DNA of 62,753 bases, counting the filler, from Hausera hauseri (taxonomy: Eukaryota), in the NCBI GenBank assembly GCA_046269625.1. It is 11 parts of 11 records of this genome, joined end to end, with 100 filler letters (N's around TTAATTAATTAA, not from the genome) between each part and the next. Parts side by side here need not be neighbours in the genome. Positions count along the whole stretch, not along the records: positions 15,149 to 20,489 come from JBJURY010275174.1; 10 more parts are not named here. One strand, written 5' to 3'. The notes beneath the pieces are model-generated. The model was not told the origin of the DNA and ran no database searches. It was given only the letters and a program-made list of their open reading frames with translations. The position numbers and the translations under genes are program-made. Each line of letters opens with the position of its first letter. The first letter of the stretch is position 1. Positions 9,025 to 59,151 of this stretch are shown piece by piece.

Positions 9025-11305
9025 TTTCCGCACGCAAGTTGTATCGTTTTTAATGTCGGTCCTAATTCATCTGTAGGAAATAACCCTTTTCTTTCATAAT
9101 CTGTTAATTCGGTCGTCACACCCGTTAACCATATTTGTACAAGTTCTCGTTTATTTGTTAATTCTGATTGCGTGATATTATATTTATTCTTATAAGTCTC
9201 CAATTCCTTGCCGAATTCATCTAGCTTCGTAGCTCTTTGCTTTTCACGAATCCGTAATTCTTCTATATCTTTAACTTAATTTGTCAATTGTCGCATCTTG
9301 TCGTCATCTATTTCTGCCATTGTTGATAGTAGTGAAATTAATTCGTACATTTCTTTTAGACTTTTCGAATCTGGATCTATTGCATCAATCAGTCTCTTTA
9401 CAAATCTAGCTTCGTCCGGTGTGAGGCGATGATCCTTGATTATTTCTATTAATTCAGCATGACAGTTCTGGTCAATGTCTGATGCCCATTCGAAAGGACG
9501 ATGTAGATATTTTAGTACTTCTAACGCAATACGATGATTTGGTCAAATATCCAACGTCGATAGATCACATATGGATATTTCCTCTACAGGCCTTGTTATC
9601 AAGTGTCGTACACCTTCCAGGCGGACACCTTTAGTTTCATCGATAAGGAGGAGATCTTTTCCTGTTTCGCTGATAATTCTATTTCTTTGATCATTGTTTA
9701 CAATTATTCTGTGAGTTTCATTTCCTGATCCTTACTCATAAATCTTAGTCTCAATAACGAATTAAAATCAACTCTGAGGTTTGCCTCTATTTTGTAAACA
9801 TCTAGGTTACGAAGTATTTACTTTAGCTGTTGTTTTAATATCTGTTCACGTTCCGAAAACTTTTTAGACGATACTTCGTTAGACCCACCAATCTGTCTAA
9901 TAGTTCAATCCATTCCTTGACTTGGTTATCTATCATTGGTTTCGCATTTATTACATTTTCTAATCGTTCGTAGGCGTCGTTTAATATATCATCTGGACCC
10001 TTAATATAGTCCATTACTCCTTTAACATAGTTAACTTTCTTCTTGTATTCGTTCAATTCCAAAATGCATGTTTTCGTTATGTTTTGTACTTCTTGATTTT
10101 CCGCATACGTTATTTTATTCTTATATCTGTAGATTTCAGAGCGCCTTTTATCTTGCGAGGCTGTGCATATTCCTATATCCGCATATTCTTTTGGTGCGTT
10201 GAATGCGATCTTGCACATTTCTATTATGAGAGGAATATCTACAGGTTCTATGCCTAGCATTGAAAATTTGTTTTCATCCAATTCGTATATTGGTTTATTT
10301 TTGAGGTGATAAATTACTGCACTCTCTATTTCTGCCATCAAATTCGCTAAGTTCCATTTTGTTCGCTTCTGTTTTGGATCTCTCTCTAGCGTCCTTAGTA
10401 ATCCTTGGGCGGTCGCTACTTTACTCTTGATTTTTATTTCTTGATTATTCCATGTGTGGCTGAATTCGATTCCTCTTTTTATCAATGAATCTAGTTTCGT
10501 CTTCCATTCTTCAGTTGACTTCTCCACAATTTCATCCATTTGCTTTTGATCTTTCTCCTTGTTAACGTCTTCTTCAAGGTATTTTTTAAATTCTTTATAC
10601 ATTCTTTCGGCGAATTGCTGTTCTTTTCCTGACACATCTACTTGAGCTTTTATACGCCTTAATTTTTCCAGATTGTGACGTATAATATCCGCATCTGTCG
10701 GTGCCATCCTAATTTCTTTCAATTTCTCTGCATTTTTCCAGGATTTTCGGATCACCCACATCTTTCCGTCTAGCCTTTTAATTCATTCCGTGCCATCAGT
10801 CTCGCTTTCGCTATCGGTTAATGGACATATCTCATTTATCTCAATGTTCACGTCTCCTACTGTTACGCTAGTGCTTGGAATATCCGTAACTTCAGGAAGA
10901 TCCACACCTGGAGTGTCTAAGTTCGCAGTGTCCTCTATATCCGCATCTCGGACTTGAGTTATCTCTGCATTATCTCTTTTTAATGGCGATCTTGATTGAC
11001 CCTTCGACTTCCTTTTAAGTGATGGACTACGACCTCTATTTTTCGTTATTTTAAGAACTAATGGGGCTATATATTCACTTTTGATTTCGTCAGCCACATC
11101 TTGACGTCCTTCTGTCAGATTTTCAGATCCAGCGTTCAGGTCTACACTGGGCGATACTGCTACTATTTCAGTTTCGTTCACTTTTTTTGCCTCCACGGGC
11201 TTTTTAGGTACATTCTTCTTGCGAACCATATTACTATTGTCTGACGCAATTAATTGCTCATATTTCGTTCGAGGTTCAATTAATTCGTGATATACTTCTA
11301 CTATT
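9025..11305 (-). pseudogene. Long uncharacterised coding region following the Gag zinc knuckle (no protease or RT motifs)
   Basis: In frame with Gag past a single TGA (~11306) into ORF 10783-11229, then ORF 9835-10761 and further coding-like sequence to the contig end. Confidence 0.6.
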
Positions 11306-12800
11306 CAAACGTTATCTTCATATTCCTTTCGAGCCTTCAGGATTTGCGGATTATCTGTTTCTCGTTGGCTTTTCAGGTATCGTCGTGAATCTTGAATATC
11401 CAATATTGCGTTTATGTCACCTCTGGGACCATACTTCGCCTCTAAATCTTCTTGTGTCTTAATCATGCTTGCTTTAGTTGGTTCGGTAAATGAAACGTTT
11501 CGCGGATTTGGGCACGATCTAGCTATGTGACCTTCCTTGCCACATGTGTAACATATTAAGTTTCCGTTTCTACCAATCCGTTGTCAACCGTCCTCATTTA
11601 TGGGGGATTTTGGGCGACTATCGCTCCTAGAATATCCCTGGTTTCCAAATTCTATCCTACTACTTCCGTCATTTCTGTTTTCATTGTTTCTAAAATCATT
11701 GTATCTGTTTTCGTCCTTATGCTTAAAACTTTTTTATTGCTCTTATAACCATCTTGGTTCGAGTTGTAGTTTGGCTTTGCCGCGTTCATACTATTTAAAT
11801 TCCGATTATTGTCAAAGCTTTTATTTCCATAACGTGGATTCCTATCCATCCTATTATCGAAATTTCGATTTCGACTATGTTTGTGGTATCGTCCACTATT
11901 TCTATTTCTATCGCTGCGCTCATTGCGCTCATTTCGTTCGACGTTCCTGTCGTGTCTTTCATTTTGCCTAGCATGTCTGTCTAACGCCATTTCTAGGTCT
12001 TGTGCCAATTGTAATGTTTTCTCAAAGTTTTCTGGTTTCGGTAAAATGAGTTGCTTCACTAGGTCTCTTGACCAAATACCATAAATAAATTGTGGTGTCA
12101 TCATTACATCCAAATCTGACGGAACTGCCTTTTCCACGGCTCTACGTTCGGCGTCGTCTTTTGCCATAGCCATATTTAAAAATCTTAGTGTACTAATATA
12201 ACTATTTGCTAACTTTTTTGAAGCAGACGCAAACTGGGTGACCGATTTGCCCTTCTGTTGCGTCCTATTTTGAAATGCCATTAACTTTTGTTGCGGAGTT
12301 ACCGTCGGTAGTAATTTCCTATTTAATGCTCCTACAAATGACGATCAATCTCTTTTTTCTTCGTCCATTAACTCGACGTAGGCATCTGCGGCCAAATTCT
12401 TTAAGTTAAGCTACAATCGTCCAATCATCTGCTGAGATTCTAACCCCATGCCTTCGGCGTGAAACTTATAAGTTCTTAAAAATTCATTCAGTCCTTCTGG
12501 ATCGCCGTCGTATGCAGTGAATTCAATGATTCATACGTGTAAATGTCTAATTTCTGTCGAGGCGTATCGGCTGTTATTTTATTCCTATTTGCGTCTATTC
12601 TATTTTCTATTTTACGTCGGTTGGTTACTTTATCCGGAACTTTAAAACTTGCTTCTTGATCTTGGTCTAATAACCCTGTTAAATTTTCTCGTGGCTCGAA
12701 TAATGTGCGCTTTTCGTATGAATTCGTTCGTACTTTACTACGGGTTCGTCTTATGTTTAAATTTTCCTTACCGTTTAGGTTTAAATATTCTGATCTACTA
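11306..12800 (-). pseudogene. Ty3/Gypsy-like gag with CCHC zinc knuckle
   Basis: YDGDPEGLNEFL, FQNRTQQKGKSVTQFA (MHR-like), QFIYGI, then ICYTCGKEGHIARSCP (~11510-11557). Some stops and frameshifts. Confidence 0.85.
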
Positions 12801-12970
12801 TGTCTGTCAATAATTGTGCTTTAAAACCCTCTTATTTAAATATAGGACCTTATATCCAGAAATTTTATATATCCTATTCGAATCAATTAATTGGTGCGAT
12901 GTGCTGATCGCTGGGTGTGTAATTAATTAACCCTGAGCTGAAGTAATAGTCTAGCGAGTCACAAACTGTT

Positions 12971-12984
12971 CTGCTAGGTCGCCA
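12971..12984 (-). promoter_or_regulatory. Primer-binding site TGGCGACCTAGCAG
   Basis: TGG-initiated, 2 nt after the LTR-terminal CA. TGGCGACC suggests a tRNA-Arg-type primer (unverified). Confidence 0.75.
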
Positions 12985-12986
12985 AA

Positions 12987-13805
12987 TGTTAGAATTTGGG
13001 TTGGGCCCTAATCGTCTTCAACTATCTAACAATAATTTATCGTAAATTTTATTATTAGCAGATACAGTTTACCGTTCTCGGTAAATCAGGATGTACCTAC
13101 TAGACTTGTATAGATATTAATTCGTGCGGGTACTGCGTGCTTTTCCTGTGCGTCAATTTAATTTCGATTCTCTCTTAGCTATATAAGTTAACTAGATTTT
13201 AGAAACTTAGGGTAGTCTAATCGATCTTAAGGATCGAAGGAAACTATATAAAGAAATTTGAGACTGTTAAACGCACAAAAATATAATACCGATAACAATC
13301 ACGTCAACTGAACCTTTTGATCGCTTTCTAATTTCAATGTTTCCTCTGGTTTCTAACTTCTCTAACGAATCTGTCGTTCAATCGTTTCGTATCTCTTTCG
13401 TACTGCGAACTGATTCAAATTTGTCTTACTTCTCTGAGGAATTCGTTGCTTCAATAGCTTTGATTCATTGCACTGGAGATCAACTCCAAATTGTGTTCTA
13501 ATTCTGTTCAAATTCTGTTCTCATCTCTACAGAAATCCGTCGCTATATATACTATACTGGTTTGACGATTACGTCATTTTCATTCAATTATTTTCTGATT
13601 AAATTTCATTACTTCGATTATCTAATCGATTACTGTGCATTTTTGCCAATTTCTACCACCAAATATTTACACAAAGCACTATTACATCATTTGTAAATTC
13701 TGGTTAACTATTGAATATTCCAATTTATCTGTACACATATCGAATAATTACATAATAGTATTTACATTTTACAACGATGCACTACAGTCTTTACATTTCA
13801 TAACA
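12987..13805 (-). repeat. LTR (~819 bp, TGTTA...TAACA)
   Basis: Inverted TGTTA/TAACA ends, PPT immediately upstream and PBS immediately downstream on the minus strand. Confidence 0.85.
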
Positions 13806-13817
13806 TTTCTCCTCCCT
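13806..13817 (-). promoter_or_regulatory. Polypurine tract AGGGAGGAGAAA
   Basis: Purine run abutting the LTR TG. Confidence 0.8.
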
Positions 13818-13865
13818 GAGCGACACCTTGTATGTGCCTATTGCGTCAGGAGAGGTGGCGTTCGT

Positions 13866-15048
13866 TTATTGTCGGCACAGCAGTTCCAGTCTACTCCGGC
13901 GACTACTGTCGTCAACTATGTTCGCGTCTAACGTATAACTAGTACTGGGTTGATTCGGAATAGGAACAGATCTGTTGCATTCACCGTTTGAAAAATATTT
14001 TAGGCCGTTTGCTTCCGCTCGGCACACTGGACACGTTGTTTTCCCATTATCCAACGTCCATGTCTCTAAACATGTTCGGCAATATTTATGCCTGCATTCT
14101 TGGTTGTCCAATTTAACATGTCCTTGCCAGATATTTTCACTACATACTGTGCAGATATTTTCGTCTTCGTTTGTGTTTTTGTCACCATCTAAATCGACTT
14201 TGGGTACAATTTGGATTCGTTCGAGTACTAGCCCATCCTGGTCGGAATTTAGGTAACCGTATAATTCTTTTTGCTAGGTATTGATTGAACTTTTTCTAAG
14301 GTCATAATTTACGGGAACAAACATCCAGTCCATGATGGTTTCTTTGTCTAAGTCAAGAATTTTACCTTCTTTCTGGTAAGTTTGGTATTGCCTTTTACAC
14401 ATCAGTTTAATTGGGTTATTTACGGGAACAGTCAACTTTCCAGTCCTTTTTGACTTAAATATTGGGGCTAAATATTTCCTTATTTCGGCGTTTTCCCAAG
14501 CGTATGCTCCATCTGGTATTTCTCGTATTCCAGCACTTTTTACGTAAAACATCGCTTCCTTTATTTTATGGTGGCTACAATACTCAGCGGTTACTAGTAA
14601 ACTGGGGAAATCTTTATTTGTTGAAAAATGTACATTTTCTTTCGATCTTTTCTTTTTCAAGACATTCACTTCGGTAAAGATGATATCGTTGTCTGACTTC
14701 CTCCTTTGGGTTTGAGTTCTAGTCTTTTTTTTTTATTTCTTCTGAGTGCATCTCTTTTGTTTTGTCCGGGTTTTCGGTGCTCGTAGATTATTTTTTGTTG
14801 TCATTATTTCGTTTTGGATTTCTGTCTTTTCGGGCTTTTTGTGTTTTGCACTTACCTTTCGGTTATCTTATTCCTTATTTTTCTTTTTGAATAGATATTC
14901 GTACAAGGATAATTTTCTTTTTCCGGTGGCGAATGTTTTCTCTGTTTTGTTCTTTTTGTTTCCTTCTGGGTTTTTTGGTACTTTGAACATTTCTTGACCC
15001 TGGGATTTTTGATTAGTTGATTCTGAATTTTGACTGGCGCTGGGTTTG
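13866..15048 (-). pseudogene. 3' accessory ORF of the LTR element: Lys-rich linker, novel conserved domain and C3HC4 RING finger
   Basis: CTVC-x14-CRHKYCRTC-x12-CPVCR at ~14019-14153, in frame with ORF 14274-14669 across one TAG. Homologous to 19434-20309. Confidence 0.85.
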
Positions 15049-15148: not shown

Positions 15149-16430
15149 TAAGAAAGAAACCCGGCTCGAACGACAAAATCGATCTAGAAGAACAGAAAAT
15201 GCCAAAGTGGTATCCACCTCCTCACTCATTGAGGCCAGAGATAACTAAAGAGGTACAGCGGATGTTAAAGGCCGATATAATACGACAGAGTTAACGATCA
15301 TGGTACTAACTTATACTTATGGGTAAAAAGAAAGGAATTACAAAACATCGATTTTGTATAGATTATCGGGCATTAAATACGCTAATGATGAAAGATTTGT
15401 ATCCTCTACCATCAGCAAAAGAAGCTCTACACAGACTATCAGAAGCAAAATGGTTTACCACTCTCGACTTACAATCGGGATACTGAAAAGTGGAAATCGA
15501 AGAAGAAGACCGATATAAGATAGCGTTTAAACCACACGATGGCGTATACAAATTTAATGCCATGCCTTTCGGCATCATCACTAGACCCGCTATTTATACT
15601 AGAATGATGAATAAGATGCTCATGGGACTTGATCATGCATTCGCGTACTTAGGCGACGTGATAATAGCATTAAAGTGGAGGAAGAACACTTAAAGGACAT
15701 TGAAGATACACTCATGCTGCTAGAACAAGCAGGGCTGAAACTAAATGGAAAGAAATGCAAATGGGCACAGAACGCAGTATCGTACCTCGGACACATAGTT
15801 GGAGAAGGAGGATCAAACGTTTAACTACTACCGCATACCACCCACAATGTAATGGAATGGTCGCAACAGTCATTCGCATATTATCAACAGTAGTGAAAAA
15901 AGACGAAAAGGATTAGGATGAATTCCTAGAAGGAAAACAATTCGCGATTAATACGACTCCACATCCAGCAACAGGGTTCACACCGTTCTTTATGATGTAT
16001 GGACGAGAGGCAATCTTACCCACAGATCTAGGCATGACACCGTGCGAAAAGAATCTCGATGATTTAAAGCAAAACTTTGCCGAAATCTTACAGACAAGAT
16101 TGCAAAAGTGTTGGAAAGTGGCAAAAACATTATCACTTGAATATCAGGAACAATTTAAAAAACAATATGATAAAAAGTCTAAGCCTAATGATCTGAAAAA
16201 GGGAAATTGGATTTATATACATTACCCAGTTGCGAAGAAAGGTACATCCTTGAAATTAACACGTACCGGAAGAGGACCATAAGAAATCGTCCGCACAACG
16301 CCAACCACCATCTATGTTAACAAAAACGGAAAAGAAAAGGTCGTATCAATCCAAAGAGTAGTTAAAACAGATATAAGACCAGCTAAACACTACAATCTAA
16401 GACAGGGAGAAAACAAGACCTCGTCAATTG
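15149..16430 (+). pseudogene. Gypsy pol remnant: RT N-terminal part joined to the integrase C-terminal part
   Basis: RFCIDYRALN, LYPLP, FTTLDLQSGY, AFAYLGDV, then an abrupt jump (~15810) to IKRLTTTAYHPQCNG, GFTPFFMMYGRE and LTRTGRGP(Y). Confidence 0.9.
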
Positions 16431-17807: not shown

Positions 17808-18479
17808 CAACTGCACATCGGGTTATTCCACCATCAAACAAAGAATTGATTCAGATTTAGAACAATACTTTGTTTTAGGACTGACCCTTATTTTGTATTT
17901 TCTTTCAGAATGGTAAGTATAATCAGCCGAATTTGAGTCGACGAATTCCTATAAGGATACGCAACAGTCTTCATTCCAACATCGAAAGTTATATACAGAA
18001 GGATAAATGACGCATTACAAACAGAAACGTACGTTGAATACCGGAAAGAAAACGAAATATTAAATGACTTGAAGGGTGCCACAGAAGAGAACCACACAGT
18101 TGTCCTATAGGCGATGCGCGAAAACAATCAAGCTAAGTCGTATGGCCTTAAGGAACTGATCCGAAATAAAATTACCCAAGTGGAAGATATATTTATTTAT
18201 CTAGCTAGAAAACCATCTAGAATAGAAAACCAACGATGGAACTGTAATGAAGGGCGCCGATACCGATTTAGTACATTCAGAATAAGCGGACAAGGCCTAG
18301 AAAGTATTAAATATGGTCTAGAATTTAGAATAGCGACCCCCCTGTTAAACTTATGTTTGAGGTGATACATAGAAAAAACTGCAACTTAGGCTTGCCAGTA
18401 CTAGAATTCAAACAAATCCCAACCGAAGCGGAGAAGGACGAACATCACCAGTCATTTAGGCTAGTACAGGATGGTCGTA

Positions 18480-18960
18480 ACATAAGAATTATGGCTATAA
18501 ATTGTGGCAGAGGAGACGATGGGTATGGGAAACCTATCGAAGTACCTATTGAAGAAAGAGATGGAACTGAGCTTTACTCTACCATTATAAACCCCGGAAA
18601 CATGTTCAAGAATCATATGCAGAAGTAAATGGTTTAAGAAAAAAACAACTTATAAGCGGAAAAGACATTCAACAGGTCTGTTCTGAGTTAGACCATTGCC
18701 TCTACGGGTGTATGATAACGGGATACAACGTAAAACGGGAAATCGAGCTATTAAGGATATCCGATGCAAATATTGCCGGACTTAGGGAAATAGCTGCTCA
18801 CCCGATGGTTCAGAATCGAATGAAGAAGACCGTACAAGGAAGAAATAGGCCGACCACACCGGAAGCCTTCTTTAAGTTGATGATTGAATCAATGAATAGT
18901 AATTTAGGCAGAATTTCAAGACTTCTAACAACCAGCCAATGTTCAAATATTTAAAAGAAA
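18480..18960 (+). pseudogene. DEDDh/RNase T-like 3'-5' exonuclease domain in the 3' accessory ORF
   Basis: IMAINCG..KPIEV....DGTELYSTIINPG....NGLRKKQL..GKDIQQVCSELDHCLYGCMITGYNVKREIELL..LREIA follows the REX4/DnaQ pattern. Exo I acidic residues are altered in this copy. Confidence 0.65.
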
Positions 18961-19433
18961 TTTACAAATCATTAAAATGGAAACATAAGTGGACTCCCAG
19001 GAACCCCACGTATAATCTACGCAATTCTTTAAAACCCGAAACAATAAAAACCGAATATAGAAAGAATATCAAACCTTATTCCCCAGCCAGAACCGTCCAG
19101 CCCATAAGTACACATAGCCTTATGGTTACACTACAAGAACCTATGGAAAAACAAGACGAAAACAAAACCGACTTACAAACGAAAAATAAAAGCAACATTA
19201 TGCCAAAGAAACAAAGAGAGGAACGAAGACTGGAATTAACGACTAAGAAACCAAAATTACAAGAGAAATCCCAATTCAAGAAGATATCATCTATTTATAA
19301 CTACCTATTCAAGAAGAAAAGAGAAGATGAGGAACAAAAAGTGGAGAAACAACAAAACAGTCCAAGTACCTCACAGAAGATAGAACCTATATAAAAGAGA
19401 ATTAAAAGTCCCATAATAACTGAAATTAATGCC

Positions 19434-20309
19434 GTGATAGGAAAGAGAATAAAAGGGAACATACATTGCAGAACAGCTCAAGATTTTCCCAGAATGCTGG
19501 TAACCACCGAATATTATAGTAAAAAGATAATAAAGGAAGCCATGTTTTTCATCAAACGTGCTCCAGCAATAGAAGTCTTTGAGAACACCTACGTATGGGA
19601 GAATTCCAAGCTAGGAGCTTACCTCACATCAGTCTTCCGTTCAAAAAGAACCGGGAAAATAATAGTTCCCGTGGATAAACAAATTCGAATATTGCTAAAG
19701 AAACAATATCAGAAATATAAAATAGAAGGGAAGATTCCCGACCTAGATAAAGATCTCATGGCGAATTGGACCTTGAAAGAAGTAAACTGTGACCCTCGAA
19801 AAAGCACCATTAACCCCAAACAAAAGGTGATACATGGATATCTGTATCAGGACGGGGATGGTCTCGTGTTCGAACCCATCGAATTAATTATTCAAGCTGA
19901 CTTGGATAGAGACAATTGAGACAAGGAAGATAACGAATGTCCCGTATGTGATACATACTTAAGGCAAGGCTATGTAGTTATAGACAATAAAAATTGCTGC
20001 CACAAATACTGTCGAGATTGCCTAGAGAAGTGGACACTCGACAACGAAAAGAGAACATGCCCCGTATGTCGGGCAGAGGCCACGGAATTGAAATACTACT
20101 CCGACGGGAGTTACACACGAATTGTTCGGATCAAACCTTACCATAGTTACAATTTGGAAACAAGCCCAGTAACCAATCAAGACCAACGAAATTCACCAAC
20201 AGATCTGCCTGAAAGAATAAATCAATTAAGACAACCTAGGACCTTGGGCGCCACCTCTTCTGACGCAATAGGCTACTTCGAGGATGCCGCTCAGCGAGGA
20301 GAGATGTAA
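19434..20309 (+). pseudogene. 3' accessory ORF C-terminal half: novel conserved domain and C3HC4 RING finger
   Basis: CPVC-x14-CCHKYCRDC-x12-CPVCR at 19938-20072, in frame across one TGA (19917-19919). Clear homology to 13866-14669. Confidence 0.85.
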
Positions 20310-20489
20310 CATAATGGATTGTAAATAATCGAAAACGCGAATTGTTTGCTCGAGCAGTGATTGAATGTAGATTGGAAGTATCAATAATGAAATTGTTGAA
20401 GAATTTAGATTATCAAAATATGTGACAATTACTCGGTAATTGAAGAAATGATCGAAAATGCATTAAAACACGAAAAATTCAATTTAATT
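20293..20489 (+). repeat. PPT (AGCGAGGAGAGA) and start of the 3' LTR (TGTAAC at 20305), truncated by contig end
   Basis: Same arrangement and sequence context as 13806-13860 on the related element. Confidence 0.75.
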
Positions 20490-32123: not shown

Positions 32124-35100
32124 CCAGTGGATTATACGTGTCCAACGTTGTGTATATTAATTCGGATTGTGAGATGAATGACAAGAAAAGTGTTAGAAAT
32201 AGACTTGCAGTAGGACATAGAATTACTCGAATTAATGATGATGACACAAGGCATGTGATCGGAGAAGAAGCTATAAATATGCTTAATGAACTTGATTGTC
32301 CGTTTCATAAAAATAGGATTATCTCGGTCTCAATGTGCCGTTTGTTAAAAATTTCCATCTGAGTTTCGACAAACAGGACTTTTTATTCTTGTATGCTGCG
32401 ACTTTACCTCCCAATATGCAGAGACATCAGGAAAATTGTGTCAGCCATTGGTATGCTTGGATCGTAAATCGTCATAATACTAAATTACGAGAAGGAATGA
32501 TTTCATCATAATTTTGGTGGGGACGCAATTTGTGCCCACGACCGCGGCATCACCACCCCCGTGGCAAAAGAGAAATTGTGTAAAGGTAAAAATGAATGAA
32601 AAGGATAATGAAGATGAAAACAATGAAGTAACAAAGGAACAGTGTTTAGTACCTATTCGGTTTTGGTATGTATCAGGCGTTGTGTACCATCAAAGAACTT
32701 TTTTTGCTGTAGGTACTAAATGTCACTGTATGCCTTACTCGATTGATTTATGCTGGGCTGTTGAGTGATATTTTGTGACGGAAGTTTTGAAGGAATATCT
32801 GGTTCAATGTGTGGTATTGCTCGTGATGAAACTGATGAGAATGTTAAGGAGTATAAGTCAAGCAAAAGAGGCGATGCAATAGAAGGCGATGAAACACTCG
32901 ATGTAGGTAATGGAGGTGAGGAAAATGGTGTAGATGATGAAAGGGAGGGAAGCGAGATGGAAGGTGGCTATTGAATATGACAGAGAAATGATTGCTGCAA
33001 AGGCGCAAAGTGATGGAGAAAGTTTGAGGATGGACTAGAAGGACTAAGAGTTGAGTTTGTATCAGAAGTAGAGTTGGCATCCGGATTGTCATCAATGAAG
33101 AAAGCGGGCTTCAGATTCGAAATGTGAACGTTGTAAGGTTTGTTTTGGCGTAAGATGGTAGCTGTATGAGATGAGAGATTCAGCAGTTTGTATGGGCCAA
33201 CATATTGAGGTCTAAAACCCGAAGGCCATTGATCTTCCAGCTACACAAACTTGGTGGTGTACACATCCTTCGGAATGTACGTTTTGTTATCGTTTGACGG
33301 CAGAATGAGTCTTAGCTGACATCGACGAAGTGAAATTGTGCTGCACGAATGTTTTCGTCTGTGGGGTTGTCGTCGAGATAAGAAAGTTTAAATAAAGCTC
33401 GAATTGGAGTCCCAAAGAGTGTCTCGGCTGGAGCACAACTCGTAGTGGTTGAAGGTGTGTTGCATCACCCTAGTAGAACAAATGGTAGAATTGACGTGCA
33501 ACTACAATGACTGTTAGCCAAAATTTTTAAAGAAATTTTCATTGTTCCATGGAACCTTTCAAGGCCATTCGCTTGAAGATGATATGGTGTTGTATGGAAA
33601 TGGGATATCCCCAAGCGTTTAACAAGTTATTTGAAGAGTTCCGACTCAAATTGTGGACCTTGATCCGTTATTATATAACGTGGGGAGCGAAAACGCCTGA
33701 TCCAGATGTTTATGAAGGCGTTGGCTACTGAATCAGTGTTCGTTGAACGAAGAGGAATGGCTTCAGGCCAGCGAAAAGGACGATCCATCATAGTAAGGAT
33801 ATATTGATATCCGTTGTCAGAAGGTAAAGAATTAACGAGATCAAGATGAACCGTATGAAAACTTGATGTACAAGGGAAATGGTAAGGCGGCGGTTTAAGA
33901 TGTTTGTTGATTTTGTATTTTTGACAGGCTGCGCATTCCTTGACCCAGCCCTGTACATCTTTGCGCATTGATGGCCAAACTACATGACGCTGAAGCAGGC
34001 GAAAGGTTGCTTTCGAACCCGGGTGATGGATTAAATGCGTATGAAGGGAGACTGGCTTTTGTAATGGTGGAGTTAGAATGATCTTTTTATTACCGGAATA
34101 CGACGTATCAAAAGCAATTCCATCAATGATTTCGAAGGATTTGAAAAGGCTAAGGAAGTCAGCAGATGGTTGATTGGCCTTTAATACTTCGGATGTGAAA
34201 ATCGGCTCAACTGTAATAGAGCCAACCGACCTCGATAGAAAATCTGTCACCAAATTGTCTGTGCCTGAAATGTATTGTGAAACAAAACTGAATGTAGACA
34301 AGTATGATGTGTCATTCTTGCCTTGGTGATGGCTGCTTTAACATGATATGCAGGAGAGGCTTGTGGTCAGTTTGAATAACAAATAGACGAGAGAGAAGTA
34401 AGTGTTTGAAATGTTTTACTGCCAGAACTATGGCGAGTAACTCACGGTCAAATGTAGAGTAACGGCTTTCGGGTTGTGTGAGTTTTCGGGAGTAAAATTC
34501 TAATGTTTCGTCGACGCCGTTAGAAATGTGGTGTAGCACTGCACCGTTAGCTGTGGTAGAGGCATCGGTGGTATGTATAAGATCTGCATTGGGCTTTGGA
34601 TAGGCCAGTAATTCGACGGTTTTTAGGCCTTCGCGTAAGTGATCAAATTTGGTTACTATTTCAGGAGTCCAGTGGATCAACTGCCTCTTTTTCCGGATGA
34701 TAGATGTGCGAAAGGTGATGTAAGCTTAGAACAATGCGGTACATATTTGTGGATGAAGTGGAGCGTGCCCAAGAAACTCCTCATATCCGTAGTAGTCGTT
34801 GGTAGCGTTGTTTTTTAATTGTTGTAGTCGATTCAGTTGTGGAGAGTGGCCGTGCGGAGTGATGAAGTGGCCTAGGAAATTAACACGTTTTTGAAAGAAA
34901 TGACACTTGGAGAAATTGACTTGCAAATTGTTGTGATGAAGTCTGTGAAAGATAATACGGAGGTGTTCTTGATGTTGTTCAACAGAGGTGGAGGCAACTA
35001 ATATGTCATCAAAGTATGGATGGGCAAAGTCAAGGCCTCATAGAACGGTATCAATGTGTCGTTGAAAAGTTTGGGAAGCACTCTAAGCCAAATGGCATAA

Positions 35101-36748
35101 TGATATATTCATAGAGGCCAAATGGAGTAATAACAGAAGTTTTTGGAATGTCATCAGGTGCAACCGGAATTTGATGATAAGCTTTATGCAAATCAATTGT
35201 GGAGTACGTATTATTATTGGTAAGACTATGCAGGTTGTCCTTTATGAAGTAAAGGGTAAGCATCTAGGGCTGTCAGGTTGTTTAACTGCCGATAGTCACC
35301 ACATGGTCTGTAAGTGCCATCTTTCTTTGTTACTAAATGCAATGGTGAAGCCCATGGTGATTTTGATCTTCGAATGATGCCAGCCTTTTCGAATTCATTG
35401 AAGTCTGATTCAACGGCTTTTCGCCTACGAGGTGACAGTGGTCTGACCTTTTGTCTGATAGGTCTTTGGTATTCGGTGACTATGTGGTGATAAGTTGTAG
35501 AAGGCGGCTTGAAGTTGACGTCCTTTTTGAGGGTGCGGAAGCAGGAAGTTGTGATATAGGATTTGAGATTGGAATCCAGTGATGAAAATGATTGAGGCAT
35601 ATCATCAGAAGCGACAGTGGATTGTATTGCCGAAGAACAACCGTAATTGCCACCATCAACACTCCGTTTAATCGGTTGTTTTAAAACCAATTTAGATACG
35701 TTTGATGTGATGGAAGAAATGGATGAAGTACTAAATGTACCGTTATTAGCCGACGAACAAGTTTTCAAATTCACACGCGAGTTGACAGCCGAAAACGACA
35801 GAGTTTCTACTGGGCTGTTTGGTAGATATTTGTTGGCATCCACGATGGGGTCTCTGTGCAGCAGACAGCGATACTTGCAGTCAACTAGCAGATCATGTGC
35901 GGCCAGAAAATCTGAGCCTATTATGGGAGATTTAATATTAGCCACGTGGAATTTCCAGACAAACTTATCTAGCAAGTTGGCGAATGTGAAAATCACTTCC
36001 ACGGTACCTGCGATGTGCAACGGTTGATCACTGGCAGTGAAAAGCGGTGGAGAAGAAACTATAGTGGATGTAGGAGTGAAGGACAAGGGAAGGAGCGAAA
36101 AGGCAGCTCCTGAATCGATGAGGAAGTCGATGTGTGAAGTATTGTTGGGGAGCAATGCAGCCTTTAACAGAAAAACTGCAGAGGTGGTGTTAAGACGGCC
36201 AGAAGATTCAGCGGTATTGCCTATACCAGAATGTGCCGTGGCATCTGGCGGCGTTGTTAGTTTTTTGAGGTTTGTTGGGAAAAAGAAGAGGAATGAAAAG
36301 AACGAGGAGGAGAAGAAGATGGAGAAAAACTGGAATTCCTTTTATAATATTTGCATCCTGGCACACATGACCTAGCCGTGGACTGATACTTTGTGATAAA
36401 TGCAGATTGGGTTGTCTACTGCATAACGTTCGTCGTAAAATCGACAGCCCAAAAGACACTTTCTTGCATCTCTGCGGAATTTGTTGTGATAAAACATTAT
36501 TCTTCCATCTCGAGATTTGGATCGAAAAGAATGCCTGGGAAGGCCACAATCGCGCGAAACACGGTTTTCACTTTGTCGAGGCACAGATAAATCACTAAGT
36601 TGGGCTGTAATCGCAGAAATTGCTTGTTGAAGTGTATCGAATTGTTTTTGCATCATTTTCAGTTGTTGTAAAAATAAAATGTTATGTGTGTCATGGCGCG
36701 TCAGCGGTTGCTGCAGCTACTGGTTGTGAGCTATTTGATTGTAAGATG
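32124..36748 (-). mobile_element. Decayed Gypsy LTR retrotransposon (gag 3' end, PR, RT, RNase H, IN, Ser/Thr/Pro tail, probable PPT ~32549-32562 and LTR start)
   Basis: FLIDSGA, RPCGDYRQLN, TDASTTANGAVL, RELLAIV, HPG..CQKYK, TDQGPQFES. Many frameshifts. Confidence 0.92.
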
Positions 36749-40600: not shown

Positions 40601-41200
40601 AACGAATGAATCGGAGAATTCAATTATTCTATCAACAAAAGTTGCACATGACCAAAAAGATTGGTAACTAAATCTTAAAACCACAGCCTTTGCAATTAAC
40701 ACTACACCTACAAAGAGTACCGACCATTCGCCATTCGAACTGATGTTTGGCAGATTGCCACTTCTACCATTGGATACAGAGTTGTTGCCATCTTCGCTGA
40801 AAACAAGTGATTATATGGATGACCAATACCAAAACTTGTTAAAGAGACTTGAATATTTTCAAACGGAAGCCAAAATATAAAGCTGGTTATAAGAAAGGAT
40901 TTAATAAGAAAGCTCGTTTACATGCGCATAAAACTGCCGATTATATAATGATACATTACCCCGCCGTTAAGAAAGGAAAATCCATAATGCTAACACGTAC
41001 CGGACAAGGACCGTACAAAGTGGTAGATGTCCATCCTCAAACTGTTTTTATAGAGAAAGGGTAGGATAAATACGAAGCTGTATTTGTAAAACGAGTTACG
41101 AGAGACCCCGCCTCGTATAATGAATTCATACGACAAACAAAGCTATATTCACCGGAAGTGGTAAAACCTAAAGCAGCCGAATGATAAGAAATCTAATGGT
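37633..41200 (+). pseudogene. Decayed Gypsy pol (PR-RT-RNH-IN) of the large-element clade
   Basis: AMVDTEASVSL, PKWYPTP (shared with 15149-16430), FILKTDSS, TELQLLAI, HDSHLAAH, TSYHPQCN, HYPAVKKGKSIMLTRTGQGPY (shared with the 16200 region). Confidence 0.9.
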
Positions 41201-41236
41201 TACCGAGTTCACATAATATCGGGTAGATACTACGGT

Positions 41237-42620
41237 ATGGTTTTACTTATCCTACTCACGTTTTTCTGGAAACCTACAGCCACTTCAGACAACAATACTG
41301 ATGTACAAATAGCTAATTTCGAATTGGTCCAACGCACTACCATTACTCATGTCAACACAAGTAAACCTAGTATTTGCTTTAGGACGTATTTACCAGTATA
41401 TTCACGGCACGACGAAAATTACAAAAATTCAAGTCATCGGAGAATATATCGACCAGCTGTATAATCCCAGAAAAACACTATAAAACTTGTTATCAATTGC
41501 GATACAATACATCTTATAGCTATTACGTACTAGTAAAAACTTTTGATCACTATGAAAATCACAAATGGAAATCAGACATAAATATGCATATTCCAACTCA
41601 TGAGACCATCACAAGCCTGGCTAAATCAGACATAGAAAATTACGACGAGTTTTCCGCCCAATTCTTAGAGACTAATGTCGAAATCTCAGACGTAGATCTA
41701 AATCCCCCATCCATCAAGTTCCGAACTACACAACTATTGACCACTGGATATGAAATCAATATGTGGTATGATTCTTACGCCAGATATTTGCCTCAGCCAC
41801 ATTTCTGTCACCTCAGTGGAACACATGCTTAGACGTGCTGTACCCTCTGTACAGATGTTTGGTACTCAAATCGTTTTTATATGTACTTAAGGCTAAACTA
41901 CAATCCTAGTAACCGAATTCATTCTTACGGATTACTAATCTTTATCTTTGTCAAACATAAACAACTGAACCCGATCTCAAGCTCGGTTGCAAGTACAACT
42001 ACTGCAGCAAGACTTACTACAATTAATACCACATCAACTACAGGAGTAGTCATCCCCAAGAGTAGGATAAAGAAGAATGACAATTATGATGGTGATATTC
42101 TCAAATTAAAATTAAAATTAAAGCCGAAAATAAACAAACATATATTTCATACAAAACTTATGAAGGATTCCCCAATAAAAGTAAGATTAACACCTTACAC
42201 AAATCGAATTGAGATAATTCTTCCTCAGAAAATAAAAGAAGAAAATATAGTGATAACCTGCACTAATATGTATGGAAAAGTTTGAATCAAATATAATAAA
42301 AATAAAACGACCTTTTACGCAGAGTTAATTCCTGACACAAATTACCTAGTGTCGATAAAGGCATGGGATAATGGTAAACTTTTGGCAATAAAGACGTTGC
42401 CTATATGAACACATAAGATATAATGAGGAAGACGAAAAACTTAGAATAACCACATATGCACCATTAATAACAGATATATTTTACAAAATATTGGTGGATA
42501 TTCGATGTAATAGCTGGAGTTGGCACTACTGCATTTTTAACAGCTGTTTGGGAAGAGCAAAAGATGTCGAAAGAGAAGAACGTATGAATCACAACACTCA
42601 GTAATCCGAACAAACCGAGT
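41237..42620 (+). pseudogene. Env-position type-I membrane protein with Thr-rich stalk and FN3-like domain (decayed)
   Basis: Signal MVLLILLTFFWKPTATS; STTTAARLTTINTTSTT; YAELIPDTNYLVSIKAWDN (~42315-42372); TM-like YWWIFDVIAGVGTTAFLTAVW (~42489-42551). Confidence 0.65.
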
Positions 42621-44039
42621 TTATGCTACAATAGAACCCTACTCAGCCCTTAAGGATAGAACAAAAGAAACAGATGGAGAAACTAATGAATTACAGGATA
42701 TTGAAGGTACAGTATCAATAATATCAGACAGAAAAGAAAACAGACATACAACATTTTGTTTCATACCAATTTTAGTATTAAGATTCATTAAAAATATCCC
42801 TAAGAATCAATTGGAGGAATTGGTTACAAACTGTTCACTGAAAACCGTTACTATTGGAGGACTAATCATTATGGTTCAAATCATTACAAGTAGAATTTTA
42901 ACCAATCAGAGAAAACATAACTCAATGCAAATTTTCATTGCTCAACTGATCAAATTTAGCCAGTGTGTCAAAAACGATTATAAATTGGAGTTACTTACTT
43001 GAAATTCTGATAAAATGCCAAAACGAAACAACTTTCAGTATCAAGCTCCCAAAATGGGGAGCCTCAATCAAAGTAAAAAGCAAGTTGGAAATCAGACACA
43101 GACAGATCCTAGAAAAAAGAATATAACCCGAAAAATTCTGGCTATCATATTGTCATCTCATCGTGGAATCAGACGCCTCTCCGCCGCAGAACAAAACATG
43201 TCCATCGTATTCTACAAAAGGATAATACAACATCCTGGAGAAAAGATATGTAAATTCGGAGAGATTCCAAACTACTTCAAATGTGGAGAGCTTCGCAACA
43301 GACTACTCATTCCTCTTAAAATAGTCAAAATTAACACAAAATATCAACTACCAAAGCTAGCTGAAAATAATGTCTGAATCGCAATACAAGTAGTTTAGGG
43401 AAAAGTCGAAATAAAATTTCACGGATCAGATAAGGAAACTGATAACGTAAGTCAGAAGTCGGATAACGATGAAGACCAGATAGAAATTATACATAATCAG
43501 GAATCAATCCAGATTAATTAGCCTTGGGAACCAGACCGCATACAGTTGGTCACAAAAAATGATGACCATCAAATGACTTGAAATATTAAAGACAAAAATA
43601 ATTCATCACTGGCCAGAACCGATGAAGTTTAAAGAGGAACCATCAGAAAAAAAACTAGGGAAAGAAACCATAACATTTTATTGACAAGCAAAACGAGAAG
43701 CACGCGAATGGACTTCCAAAAAGCGCAAGCTGAATTCATCAAATGCATTATGGGATTTAAAGCCGTTGCCTTAGAGGTCCACAAAGTTTTTAAAGCATTG
43801 CACATACCAGTGACTATCGCTAGTGCAATATTCGACCCAATGAGATGTCTAGAAAGAATTAATGAAGAAGCAATCACCAACATAAGTCAAATGGCCAAAA
43901 CCATGGGATTACTGAAATACCAGAGTATCATTGTAGGTGTGGTGCCCACAGCGGTCGGTGCCGTTTGCCCATTTTGTCAGGCACGGTCGGGTTTTTGTTG
44001 CCGCCGCGTCGGGTCCATAGTCGGTCCCGATCTTCCGCT

Positions 44040-44462
44040 TCGACATTTTACAATTTCTCGAGTCTTCCGATTTTCAGCCGAATATTGCAAAGTACATTGA
44101 TCAAAAATTTGTCTGTCAGCTACTCGAATTGTTTGATACAAAACATCCTCGAGAACGAGATTTTCTCAAAACTCTGTTACACCGGATATATGGGAAATTT
44201 TTAGGATTAAGAGCAAACATTAGGAAACAAATAAATTATACTTATTATCGATTCATTTACGAACATGAATGTCACCATGATGTTGCCAAGTTGCTACATA
44301 TTCTCGGATGTATCATAAACGGGTTTGCTCTTCCTCTTAAAGAAGAACATACTTAAATAAGAACATTCTATTCCGTTTTCTGCTACCTCTTCACAAAGCA
44401 AAATTACTAAGTGTATACCATCCTCAATTGGCATACTGCGTTGTTCAATTTCTCAAAAAAGA
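44040..44462 (+). pseudogene. PPP2R5: PP2A B'/B56 regulatory subunit (PPP2R5) fragment, decayed
   Basis: [48 protein letters not shown]...[38 protein letters not shown]. Contains stops and frameshifts. Confidence 0.9.
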
Positions 44463-46477: not shown

Positions 46478-48665
46478 AACCACTTGTAACGTAGACGTCT
46501 TTTTTCGGTTCCGTTGATTTACTTTCCTACGTATCCGAATGAACTGACCAATTAGTATTGCATTTTTCTGGGACTAATATAAGGTTTTTTCGAAGTCGTC
46601 AATTGGCTGAAATTGAAAAAAAAAATCCAACGAGATGTTAAATAATATCGCATGAACTGTAAATGGCTGTGATATTACAAAACTGCATTTCACAACCGAA
46701 TACAGTCATGAAATATCAATGACACTGTTAATCGATCATGACGTTTGGCAATTAGAACTCTGAAAGACCAGCTTAACACACTCACTTTGATGCCAGAGTG
46801 TTCAAACTTGTCTTTCAAAGATGACATTGCATTTCTAAGCTTTTCAAAATAAGTTAACAAACATAATTATTTATAGTAAATCTAATGAGATTATGTAATA
46901 TGATCAGCCAATAATTTGCCACCGTTTAGTCAATCGACAATAAAATAACCAACGGAGATAAATATATTGGGCTTTGTGTCACAATGCAATTGCCTGATTA
47001 CGATGCGTGTGTGTGTGCCGTGAAACTAGACAGGAATGAGTCAGACGTGAAGTTGTAACTGCGCCATCCTACAATGAATGAACACAATACTTAGCGTACA
47101 TTGCAGTTTGCCTGATTGATTAATTTTTTTCGAAATTAAAATAACAACATTCAAAATTCAAATGCAAAACTTTATTATAAATTCATCGCACAGATTTATT
47201 AAGCAGCATTCATCGTTCGTAACTCTTGTAAGAGACTAATGGACTTTTCAATTTTAAGAACCATTAATTTTGTCATATCAGAGCCACATTGAAAGTTCTT
47301 TTTTAGAAATACTTTAAGACAGAGTAGCGGAAGTATTCGTCTTGCTATTTCAACAACATTTATTCCTGCTTATGCTTCCTGTTTCCTGTCCTCCCAAGCA
47401 TGCTTCCTCCTCTACAACCTCTGCTGTTCCTTCATCACCATTGTACGGTGGCCCTGAAGGACAAACCAAAGAAACCAAACACATCTACAGTTCCTTTATG
47501 AGGATAAGCGACAGTTCCAGTTTGTGATTGGACAGAATCCAAGCTTTAGATTGATGTCAGTTCCTGTTTCTGTTGCGGAACCCACCTCCCCTCTTCATTT
47601 TTATCAGTCCCCTTCCAGTAAACTAAGATAAGTGTCAGGTGGTCCATTAAGTACTTTACATCCAGGAACAACTTGATTTCTGACAGATGTTTTATACTGT
47701 GTTTGGTGATTTGTCTTATGACTCAGTTTAATCTCATTTAGTTTTAGATTGGTTAAAGTAAACTGAAATTGTGGCCACTTGATCCAATTTGTTCAACATA
47801 TGAAGACAACTTTGGAAAAAGTCGTTAAAATTTGGTATTTATTGCTCGTACTTCTTGCCTATTGTCAAACAAGTGGAATAAAAGCTCTGATCCCCTCAAA
47901 AAACCTTATGGAATGTGATGCCCTACATACCATGTACACACCCTGATTTATTATCAGATGTCCATGTTTTTTGTTGGGTGTTCCCACCCTAAAGTGTAAC
48001 AACTAACAGTTCCTTAGCCCTTTATTTAATGTTCACCTTTTTCCTCTGCAGAGCCTGNNNNNNNNNNGAACATTACTGAGGAGGAACAAGTCTTAATGCT
48101 GGAATGGATGATGATAAAAATACAAACATGACAACCAACTTAAAAATGTACTTATTGCATTGTGATTCTGGTTAAACAAGCAAACAAAAAAAACACATTA
48201 CTAAACAGGGGTTTATGTGAATCTGAGCTCCACATTCATCTAATTTTCTCCAAACTTTAAGCAAGCAAAATTCTAGAGGCTTTCTGTCAAAATGATGCGT
48301 AATATATCATTTCACTTTTTAAAAAGACACATTATTATTTAAACCTTCCAACTGTTTACTTCATTTTGTCAGAAACATTAAGAAAAGATATGGTTCACAT
48401 TCTTGATTTGTTCTCCATTTTCAAAAACTGTCGGGACTTACAGAAACTTTTTTTTACACGGAGATGACATTTCTTTAACGCAGACAGAAATTGCACTTCC
48501 AAGTGTTTGAGCTGAAGCCATAAAATGATCTAGCTAGATTAGCTTTGCTGTGTGAATGCTGAAATNNNNNNNNNNNNNNNNNNNNNNNNNNNNNNNNNNN
48601 NNNNNNNNNTTAATTAATTAANNNNNNNNNNNNNNNNNNNNNNNNNNNNNNNNNNNNNNNNNNNN

Positions 48666-51421
48666 CGAAAATCAATCTGTTTCATGTGTGCCATAAACTT
48701 GATGAGGAATGCATCACAATCTTTCTTCTTGTTGGGAGCTTGTAGAAGATCCACAGGGCATAGAGGACTTTTTCCTGTAACAGATTGAAAAGGTGAGAAA
48801 CCAGTTTCATCGGGCATACAGCGAAGACTGAAGAGAACAACAGGAAGAGACAGCAACCAATCTTGCTTTCTCGCCATCAGTGCAGTCTTAAGAACACGAT
48901 GAAGACGCTCACATTTTCCATTGCTCTCAGGATGATAGCTAGAAGTTCTAAGTCGATGAAATCCAATAATCTTCGATAATTCTGAGAAGAATTCACTCTC
49001 AAACTGAGCTCCTTTGTCCGATATTACATAGAGCGGAACGCTAAATCTGGAAATCCATTGCATAAAGGCATATGCAACTGAAGGAGCAGTAGTATTGACA
49101 AGAGGGTAAGCTTCCATCCACTTAGTGTTTCTGTCGACGCAGGTGAGAAGGTACTTGAAGACAGGCGACGAAGTGCCATGAAGAGAAGCGGGTGGAAGAG
49201 GACCGACGATGTCAATATGCACAGTCTCGAGTCTGGAGGATGGAATTTCCATTGGCAAGACAGGAGGCTTTGTATGGCGGTGGATCTTGGAAACTTGACA
49301 GTCTTGACAAGCACGAACCCAATCTCTTATATCGCGATCCATGTTCGGCCAAAAGTACCTCGCTTTCAGAAGTCGAAGAGAACCTTTTATTCCTGGATGA
49401 GACATCTGATGCAGATCGTCGTAAACGCGTCGCCGACATGATGAAGGCAAAAATGGTCGGGGGTGAGATGTAGAAGTGTCACACCAAAGTTGTAAGTTAT
49501 CTTGAAGTGGATATGGTTGAAGACGAGCAGAAAAATCCTTGAGTTCTTCATCTGTTTGTTGAAGTCTGGCAATGGCAGGAAGATCTACTGCGTCAATCTG
49601 AACTGAAGAAATGCGAGATAATGCGTCAGCAACTACATTATCTGCACCACGTATATAGAGCATCGACGATACGTATTCCGTGAGTACAGAAAGATGACGC
49701 TGTTGACGATCACTTTTTGCAGGAGTTTTACTGTAGAAAGCTGATACAAGCGGTTTGTGATCTGAACACAGGACAACAGTTCTTCCTTCCAACATGTGCT
49801 TGAAATGGAGCACAGCGAAGTATGCAGCCAATAATTCTCGATCAAAAGCGGAGTACTTCTGCTGTGGAACTGAAAGCTTCTTGCTATAGAAGTCAATGGG
49901 AACTGGTTGACCATCCACCATCTGATGGAGAGCTGCTCCAATAGCAACTTGACTACTATCTGTCACCAGCTGAAGATGCGATACATTCGGTATGGAAAAC
50001 GGCAGAGTCGTGGCGTTCTGGAGTAGATTCTTCATGTTATCAAAAGCTTGAATTTCTTCTTGAGTCCAGGATAAAGACTTGCTTTTTGGAAAATGTTTAG
50101 CTTTCTCTGAGAGTAGGAATATATGATTGGCAAAATTTGGAATGAAACGTCTGTAGAAACCAATCATGCCCAAAAATCTTCTGAGAGAAGGTGAATCTTG
50201 AGGCAAAGGATACTCTGATATTTCTGTCTTCTTGGAGTCAGGAGCACTGAGACCGTCAGCAGATATAGAATATCCCAGAAATTGAAGACTAGTTTTGAAA
50301 AATTCGCACTTTTGCAAACTGATTTTGAAGTTGTTATCATGAAGGATGGCGAAAACTTGACGAAGATGATCCTTGTGTTCTTCTTCAGATGATGAAAATA
50401 CCAGTAAATCATCGACATAGCAAAAAATGAATGGTATGTCTCTGAAGATGGTATCCATCACTCGTTGAAAAGTAGAGCTGGCGTTTCTGAGACCGAAAGG
50501 CATGGTCACAAATTCATAAAGACCAAAAGGAGTAGTAACAGCTGTTTTCTCAATATCCTCTGGGCGAATGGGGATCTGATGGTAGGCTCGTTGCAAATCG
50601 ATCTTGCTGAACGTTGTTGAGCCATGCAGATGTTGAGAGACAGACTGAATATGTGGGATCGAGTAGCGATCTTCCTTGGTAATGGAGTTGAGAGCTCGAA
50701 AATCTCCACAAGGTCTCCAACTTCCTGGTGTCTTCTTAGCCACGAGGTGAAGCGGGGAAGCCCATGCAGACTTCGAAGGTCGAATAATACCAGATTCTAA
50801 GAGAATCTTGAATTCAGCTTTTGCAGCTTGGAGTTTATCTTCGGCTAAACGACGAGGTCGGGCAAAAACAGGAGTAGAGTCACCAGTCTCGATGTAATGG
50901 AAGGGTCCAGTAGTTCGACGAGTCATCGTAGAGACGTTTAACGGACTGGTGAGTGAAGGGTAATCTGTCAGCAAGCTCGAAACCACAGGATGTTCATGTT
51001 CACTGAGATGGAAAATAACATCAGGAATCTTTTCTGCAACAACAGTGAGTGATGCTAGCAAATTTGTCTTCTTATCTAGTATAGTCTTCTGACCACAATC
51101 AATGACCAGGCCATAGTGATGTAGAAGGTCAAATCCAAGTATGGGTGTTGTGATGTCAGCAACAAGGAAGGTCCAAGCAAATTCACGTCGAAGAGATCGA
51201 ATTCCAATCAAAGTAGAGACTTCTCCAAAACACTTGATAGGCGTACCATTAGCAGCGGAGCAAGTGACGCTGGTAGGAGTCAACGAGATATTTGGTACAC
51301 TTGACAGAGGTATGCTGGATATTGAAGCACCGGTGTCTAATAGCCATGATTGTTGAGCGCCGAAGATCTGAGCTTTGATGGTAAACTGCGAACTGATTAA
51401 GGCGCAGACATCAGCTCGCAC
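48666..51421 (-). CDS. pol: Intact Ty3/Gypsy Pol (PR-RT-RNH-IN), 3' end cut by contig edge
   Basis: [56 protein letters not shown]. Uninterrupted ORF in the -1 frame relative to gag. Confidence 0.97.
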
Positions 51422-51423
51422 TG

Positions 51424-52209
51424 TTAGTTTTCCGTAGGTGTTCTGACAGGTGAAGAAGATCGTGATGGAGCAGGAGAAGAGGGGCGAGACGATGGCAACA
51501 TCCTAGTTCGTTCTTTGTTCGGCCACCTACACCAGGGCTTACATGTCCTTGCACTGGACGCAAAGTAAAGGTGGGCTCTGCAAACTCTTGGTTTCTGGTC
51601 AGCGGAGAAAGGACGTACTCCAATCGGAATGGAAGAGGTCGAAGTCGGGGGAGGAGCTGGCTTTGTATCCTTAGCTGAGATGGCAGCAACTGTAGCAGGA
51701 ACTATCGAGACCAAGTGATTGGCGAGTTGTCCTAACTGGTCTAAAGATATCCCAGTTTGAGCGGCTACAGCTGAGCGAATGGATTCTGGCAGACTTTGAA
51801 TGAACTGCATACGTACAAGGTCGTCGCTGATTCCCAACTTGGAAGCTTTGTTCATAAGGTCCCGGAGAAATATCGCAGGTTTACCGGTGTACGTGTGCTT
51901 AGAGACAAAGTCGTTGAACATCTCCACTTTGCTCTGTTCAAAAATAGACACCACTGCAGACTTCAAAGTGGTGTAATTCTCGGCATCCAGAACCGTAGAA
52001 GTCACTCGGTCGAGGATATCGGAAGGAAGCTGCGAGAGAGCATGCCAATATCTGGTCCTCTCGCTGGTAATCCTAGCCAACTGGAATTGAGCTTCCAGCA
52101 CACGGAACCAAGTAGGAACCGAGGTTTCACTAAAAATAGGAACCTTAATTCTCACCTGAGCCAATCTCTCCTCTTGAAGCTGCTGATCTTGGGCGTCGTC
52201 GTCGGGCAT
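51424..52209 (-). CDS. gag: Gypsy Gag with C-x2-H-x9-C-x3-C motif
   Basis: [20 protein letters not shown] ... [18 protein letters not shown]. Ends at slippery G_GAA_AAC TAA. Confidence 0.93.
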
Positions 52210-52242
52210 CTTGAAGACGGGTCACTCCAGGAAGTTCACCAA

Positions 52243-52795: not shown

Positions 52796-52823
52796 TACAC
52801 TTCCTTCCGGGGGAGTGGAGCGA

Positions 52824-54528: not shown

Positions 54529-54529
54529 A

Positions 54530-54718
54530 TGTGGCGGAGGGGGCTTGAAGGCTTGGCTGGGTTTTTCTCTTCGACGACGCTTGAGCAGCTCTAGAGATAT
54601 CGACCCAACTTCTACTTCGTAGGCTGATTCGAACACACCACTAATTTGTTTCACTCACAAGGTTAAAGGAAACAAGCCTATAAGATAGGCAGTGATTACT
54701 TATTTATTGAAATTACAA
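54530..54718 (-). repeat. Partial 5' LTR (R/U5 side only)
   Basis: Near-identical to 52243-52428, then unrelated sequence. Confidence 0.85.
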
Positions 54719-59075: not shown

Positions 59076-59151
59076 TTTTTGGATTGGTGAGTTGGGACGG
59101 TTAATATTAGAGAAACTGGAACGTCTATCAATGGTGTAGTTATGGTTAGTT

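Follow-up and report, generated by a model that had tools for sequence, protein, structure and literature searches.

Exonuclease domains of the DEDD superfamily are already known from LTR retrotransposons. According to the covered sections of Rodriguez et al. 2017 (PMC5408684), the ORF3 of the bdelloid rotifer elements Juno and Vesta, which stands in place of env, encodes a DEDDy domain with its invariant residues (DEED) intact, and Terminons also carry an ORF3 of the DEDDy type; an opinion paper (PMC6338049, in its covered text) counts a DnaQ-like domain among the well-known accessory domains. The giant gypsy-like planarian elements Burro/GYPSM1 carry additional domains linked to ubiquitination, one of them a RING-type zinc finger, within a polyprotein of ~5000 amino acids that also holds gag (covered text of PMC6431247). 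On the host side, PML and the Plex9 DEDDh exonucleases unite a RING and a DEDDh domain in one protein, and human PML-I restricts L1 by promoting the proteasomal loss of ORF1p (PMC10123124, in the part covered). Maelstrom and EXD1 are named as DEDD derivatives that have lost catalysis but still bind RNA, and they work in small-RNA pathways (PMC5408684, in the same sections).

The locus described here lies in a stretch of 62,753 nucleotides from Hausera hauseri (the window), made up of short contigs joined by runs of N with a TTAATTAATTAA spacer; adjacency across these spacers is therefore no evidence of linkage. An earlier note on this DNA had proposed a DEDDh-like exonuclease domain inside an LTR retrotransposon. 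This is borne out by profile matches and by the reverse transcriptase, integrase end, polypurine tract and LTR start found with it, but the note had missed that the domain is fused in frame to an N-terminal β-sandwich and a C-terminal RING. As in the bdelloid elements, the DEDD-superfamily domain of this gypsy-like LTR element lies on the 3' side of pol. Unlike the bdelloid ORF3, which is DEDDy (RNase D-like), the domain matches DEDDh proteins and has lost its catalytic residues, a distinction drawn from the published description; it is fused between two other domains where the bdelloid ORF3 is separate, and an FN3/transmembrane ORF is present as well, whereas in the bdelloid elements ORF3 replaces env (PMC5408684, covered sections). 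The RING recalls Burro, but here it belongs to a separate 3' ORF rather than to a polyprotein with gag, and the covered text of PMC6431247 names no exonuclease for Burro. The likeness to PML is one of domain content: PML is a host restriction factor in which the RING comes first (RBCC), and its fish forms are active nucleases (PMC10123124, in part). Maelstrom and EXD1, likened by description, have a DEDD fold, which is predicted for the present domain too, and like it they lack the usual catalytic residues, but they are host piRNA-pathway genes, have no RING and are not element-encoded (PMC5408684, covered sections). Searches of the open-access literature brought up no element-encoded pseudonuclease-RING fusion.

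Table 1. Features of the element and of its sister copy, in window coordinates.
Feature	Coordinates	Strand	Remarks
Sister element on another contig: conserved ~140-aa domain and RING, polypurine tract, whole LTR, primer-binding site, gag	12987..15048	-	
Reverse transcriptase fragments of pol	15151..15821	+	broken by stops and frameshifts; contig begins within pol
Integrase C-terminal part, GPY/F-like end	15794..16360	+	read from translation
Env-position ORF: signal-peptide-like start, fibronectin type III domain, transmembrane segment	16380..17807	+	broken
Accessory ORF	17937..20309	+	~800 codons; single reading frame in intact relative P0001
N-terminal beta-rich domain, beta-sandwich/jelly-roll-like (predicted)	17937..18440	+	45% identity to P0001
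Pseudo-DEDDh exonuclease domain	18479..18977	+	
Exo I, AINCG	18494-18508	+	window copy
Exo II, GYNVKRE	18721-18741	+	window copy
Exo III, L-x4-C (inferred)	18925-18942	+	window copy
Basic linker, poorly conserved	19130..19480 (approximate limits)	+	22% identity to P0001
Conserved domain of ~140 aa	19480..19916	+	49% identity to P0001, 50% to sister copy
C3HC4 RING finger	19938..20075	+	all eight zinc ligands present; 64% identity to P0001
Polypurine tract and 3' LTR start	20294..20489	+	TG at 20305; LTR ended by contig end

On its plus strand the contig at 15149-20489 carries a gypsy-type LTR retrotransposon, of which the 3' half is present (Table 1); the exonuclease-like motifs come after the FN3/transmembrane ORF and before the polypurine tract and 3' LTR. 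Three pieces of the reverse transcriptase match Pfam RVT_1 (E 4e-5, 4e-6 and 4e-5), each under the curated cut-off. A 40-aa integrase piece had no match in Pfam; the integrase end, which we take to carry a GPY/F-like motif, matches other integrase ends in the window (tblastn, E 5e-16). RNase H and the N-terminal part of the integrase are missing between the two, and the reverse transcriptase lies upstream of the integrase, as in Ty3/gypsy. In the env-position ORF, where hydrophobic segments were read from the sequence, Pfam gives FN3-type matches only (fn3, E 1e-3; Pur_ac_phosph_N, E 7e-6; both under cut-off). This ORF may be a type I membrane protein with an FN3 domain rather than an F- or gB-type fusogen. 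The Env of errantiviruses, the env-carrying gypsy elements, is an F-type or gB-type fusogen according to the covered part of a recent survey (PMC13524379), and the words “exonuclease”, “RING” and “fibronectin” are absent from its main text. The last codons of the accessory ORF overlap the junction of polypurine tract and LTR, which is 83% like that of the sister copy over 59 bases. Besides the order of pol, this contig shows the polypurine tract and the LTR start of a gypsy element; a whole LTR, a primer-binding site and the gag knuckle are seen in the sister copy only.

The sister copy has a whole LTR of 819 bases (13805-12987, TG...CA) and a gag with a CCHC knuckle (Pfam zf-CCHC, E 8e-8). 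Over 9025-15048, on the minus strand, the order is 3' RING ORF, polypurine tract, one LTR, primer-binding site and gag, an arrangement that may represent two elements with one common LTR or the assembly of a circular form. Past the gag zinc knuckle, ~750 further in-frame codons, with stops, form an unusually long extension of ORF1 (9027-11304, minus strand), which is charged, probably helical and without assignment in Pfam or PHROG. Other gypsy-type elements are also present in the window. A second, more distant one at 41100-43400 has a long env-position ORF and more ORFs after the integrase; what looked by eye like a dead Exo I at 43130-43300 was rejected, at -0.9 bits on the DEDDh profile and with no support from Pfam or PDB. 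Behind the 3' part of this element, an intron-less piece at 44021-44356 reads like what we take to be a PP2A B56 regulatory subunit gene, and may be captured host mRNA. A different, short gypsy-type family is represented by a near-intact gag and a 962-codon open pol at 48614-52221 (minus strand), with decayed relatives at 33600-36700, 52800-54600 and 56200-60200.

Two relatives of the accessory ORF were found. Three matches came from an unindexed search of 1.84 billion representatives; one of them, P0001, is a true relative: an intact protein of 870 aa, 39% identical (E 2e-22). Repeats account for the other two, P0002 and P0003, an ERAP1_C-bearing repeat protein and an RTX-repeat protein, which were set aside as chance matches. 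Word-indexed protein searches gave nothing for the window piece and otherwise returned only P0001 itself and P0004, a third sequence of 333 aa that is ~55% identical to P0001 and comprises the N-domain together with the front half of the exonuclease domain, ending before Exo II and Exo III. No relative came up in locus scans of viral and metagenome contigs or in tblastn against phages. In P0001 a β-sandwich domain, the exonuclease-like domain, a basic linker, the conserved ~140-aa domain and a RING-HC follow each other in one ORF, and tblastn of this protein against the window aligns in four collinear pieces, over 17937 to 20306, with a joint E of 1e-138. The exonuclease-like domain is therefore the middle of the accessory ORF and not a free-standing ORF. 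Furthermore, the C-terminal peptide of P0001 is the one encoded by the polypurine tract/LTR junction of the sister copy, which suggests that P0001 occupies the same position in a related element.

The window copy of the accessory gene is dead; it has three frameshifts (near 18334, 18598 and 18951) and four internal stops (17952, 18108, 19392 and 19917). Run X1, in which 9108 contigs were aligned, points to many divergent copies, 7060 of these contigs being less than 95% alike. One-base indels occur in 5 contigs near 18340 and in 13 near 18591-18597, and the shifts at these two sites are therefore not common to all copies; among the 40 of 2519 run X1 differences that were listed, none falls in the Exo I codons.

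All of the motifs quoted in the earlier note are present in the sequence, split by the second of the frameshifts, at about 18595-18600: IMAINCG..PIEV..DGTELYSTIINP reads in a single frame over 18488-18595, and NGL..GKDIQQV..GYNVKREIELL..LREI in the next frame, to about 18795. In the ESM Atlas the second piece, of 127 aa, falls among RNase_T clusters (best 0.91; 19 of the 30 matches are in this set), sharing 154 features, below the 170 typical of same-family matches, and its top PDB match, PolC exonuclease, is non-significant (E 1.1). A profile built from the window, P0001 and P0004 sequences, searched against PDB sequences, gave PolC exonuclease at E 1.2e-4 and DnaQ at 1.6e-4, with plant SDN1 (0.0098) and ISG20L2 (0.14) weaker; Cdc15, at 0.0033 in the same search, matched another stretch of the protein and is unrelated. 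Residues 55-419 of P0001 match PHROG 192, a DNA polymerase exonuclease subunit (E 3.4e-5), and all nine NCBIfam matches fall on the same stretch (best E 0.001), eight of them named DnaQ, PolC, DinG or 3'-5' exonuclease and one unnamed.

A reference profile was also made from an alignment of 10 active-type DEDDh domains. On it P0001 scored 18.5 bits and the window domain 10.1; none of 500 shuffles of either reached these scores (maxima 8.6 for P0001 and 9.5 for the window domain, for which the margin is thin), and hhalign to the same alignment gave E 9e-4 with a probability of only 22%. The similarity covers the DEDDh core, namely strands 2-3, the P..I....tGI insertion and Exo II. The profile comparison suggested earlier as a check thus gave the PolC, DnaQ, SDN1, PHROG and NCBIfam matches above, but none to Pfam RNase_T for either the window domain or P0001. 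Structure predictions were of low confidence (pLDDT 31 and 41, and below 50 across most of the exonuclease region), so that the fold assignment rests on profiles. Kinship of the domain with DEDDh 3'-5' exonucleases (DnaQ/RNase T/REX) is supported at this level.

It is clear that the Exo I acids are gone from all three sequences, which read AINCG (window copy), AINTG (P0001) and AVNLA (P0004) at this place. The earlier reading of N and G for the D and E of D-x-E was right in finding no acid; its register is less sure, being ambiguous by two residues, neither register having an acid. A and N occupy these positions under two modes of MAFFT and in two HMMER alignments; of the other modes, two set the strand in the wrong place and one did not align it. 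At Exo II the MAFFT runs show the Asp replaced by M in P0001 and by E in the window copy. Exo III reads L-x4-C in both the window copy and P0001 by two of five alignment methods, two others shifting it by 1-2 residues and one leaving it unaligned, and an H or D was found there in neither sequence by any of the five. The catalytic set, for whose restoration other copies were to be checked, is not restored in the relatives P0001 and, as far as it extends, P0004.

Loss of the catalytic residues is thus common to intact or long-open relatives at 39-56% identity, and the same substitutions across relatives would not arise by independent decay. The exonuclease domain is 43% identical to that of P0001 (72/168), close to the N-domain (71/159, 45%) and the ~140-aa domain (68/139, 49%); the linker is at 22% (24/110) and the RING is highest (36/56, 64%). 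The column “win2” was left out of this comparison, being a frameshifted and misaligned copy. Since the loss is common to relatives while the domain is conserved like its folded neighbours, it is a retained pseudonuclease, and we hold it very probable that the lineage encodes a conserved pseudonuclease fused to a RING. The alternatives posed in the earlier note, a decayed copy or a pseudo-nuclease, therefore both apply, the first to the window copy and the second to its relatives as well.

The N-domain is a predicted β-sandwich; its model is strand-rich but of low confidence (pLDDT 41), and the fold searches, which covered this domain only, placed RmlC-type cupins first in Foldseek (TM 0.12-0.22 on the weak model) and C2-like, GOLD and cupin folds level in VIA-align (best Z 6.3, on the same weak model). 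The linker has a pI of 9.8 in P0001. For the ~140-aa domain there was no significant match in Pfam, PHROG or PDB. The RING is above the Pfam cut-off in both window copies and in P0001 (for the present copy zf-RING_2, E 1e-8, and zf-C3HC4, E 8e-7). Its sequence retains the Trp of the helix, and Pro and Arg residues flanking the last pair of Cys, which we take to be the residues used by E2-binding RINGs. Across the ~140-aa domain and RING of the two window copies (219 codons) pN is 0.28 against a pS of 0.83, which is saturated.

What the sequences show is where the domain lies in the element, that P0001 has the fusion as a single ORF, the profile kinship, the loss of the Exo I acids in three sequences and the intact set of RING ligands. 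Given the way RING E3 ligases are built, a dead domain joined to a RING whose eight ligands are all present would most simply correspond to a substrate recognition part and a ligase. On balance we think it likely, judging from the sequences, that the dead domain is a binding module which directs a ubiquitin ligase to proteins of host silencing or RNA decay. The dead domain could bind RNA ends, or it could mimic a host exonuclease and draw in the partners of that enzyme; the RING would act as an active E3; and the targets would be host defence factors, with the silencing and RNA-decay machinery as the likeliest class. That the pseudonuclease is the targeting module of an anti-silencing E3 falls, in our estimate, a little short of an even chance. 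It is a tentative possibility that an animal gypsy-type lineage encodes a counter-defence degrader, in which a dead DEDDh domain is decoy or binder for the host small-RNA trimming and RNA-decay machinery and the RING ubiquitinates these; if so, it may by analogy mirror the RING-DEDDh restriction factors of the host, PML among them. Two observations weigh on the other side. The exonuclease domain lacks a basic character (pI 7.8; 23 K/R against 22 D/E), a point against its binding RNA, although the linker is basic, and the acid kept at Exo II in the window copy would count against a pseudonuclease-ligase.

Alternatively, the protein may serve the element's own particle, the pseudonuclease binding or shielding the 3' end of the element RNA or cDNA and the RING taking part in Gag turnover, trafficking or release alongside the FN3/transmembrane protein. 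The accessory gene adjoins the env-position membrane-protein gene, the linker is basic, and 3'-end processing or auxiliary replication has been proposed for the DEDDy ORF3 (Rodriguez et al., PMC5408684, covered sections), but the non-basic exonuclease domain argues the other way; we consider this particle reading doubtful, though the next likeliest after the anti-silencing one. It is also possible, but unlikely, that the domain is a structural relic, a folded spacer only, with the RING as the working part. That the RING is the most conserved part and that the dead domain is without a shown function would fit such a spacer, but the identity of the exonuclease domain, at 43-56%, is level with that of the other folded domains and twice that of the linker.

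The earlier note had offered proofreading, or the degradation of dsRNA, small RNA or cDNA, as roles. Both need catalysis, of which a nuclease unable to hold its metals would be incapable, and neither proofreading nor RNA degradation is supported for this clade. An active exonuclease in the family, its acids missing through decay of this copy, would suit the decayed state of the window copy and the active-looking DEDDy ORFs of bdelloid LTR elements; it is highly improbable, and largely refuted for this clade, as the open 870-codon P0001 and the third sequence also have N at that place in Exo I and Exo III is lost alike in two sequences. That the DEDDh likeness is due to chance, for which the lack of a Pfam RNase_T match and of fold confirmation might speak, can be dismissed as extremely unlikely when PDB sequences, PHROG, NCBIfam and the Atlas all give DnaQ/RNase T-type proteins on the same stretch and no shuffle reaches the score.

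To our knowledge, few animal retrotransposons encode a protein that fights host silencing. The conserved pseudonuclease-RING fusion is a concrete candidate for one, and can be assayed for nuclease, RNA-binding and ligase activity by means of a single intact natural protein; the partners of that protein would name the host pathway on which it acts. If it serves the biology of the particle only, it would still be a type of accessory gene that searches of the open-access literature did not bring up.
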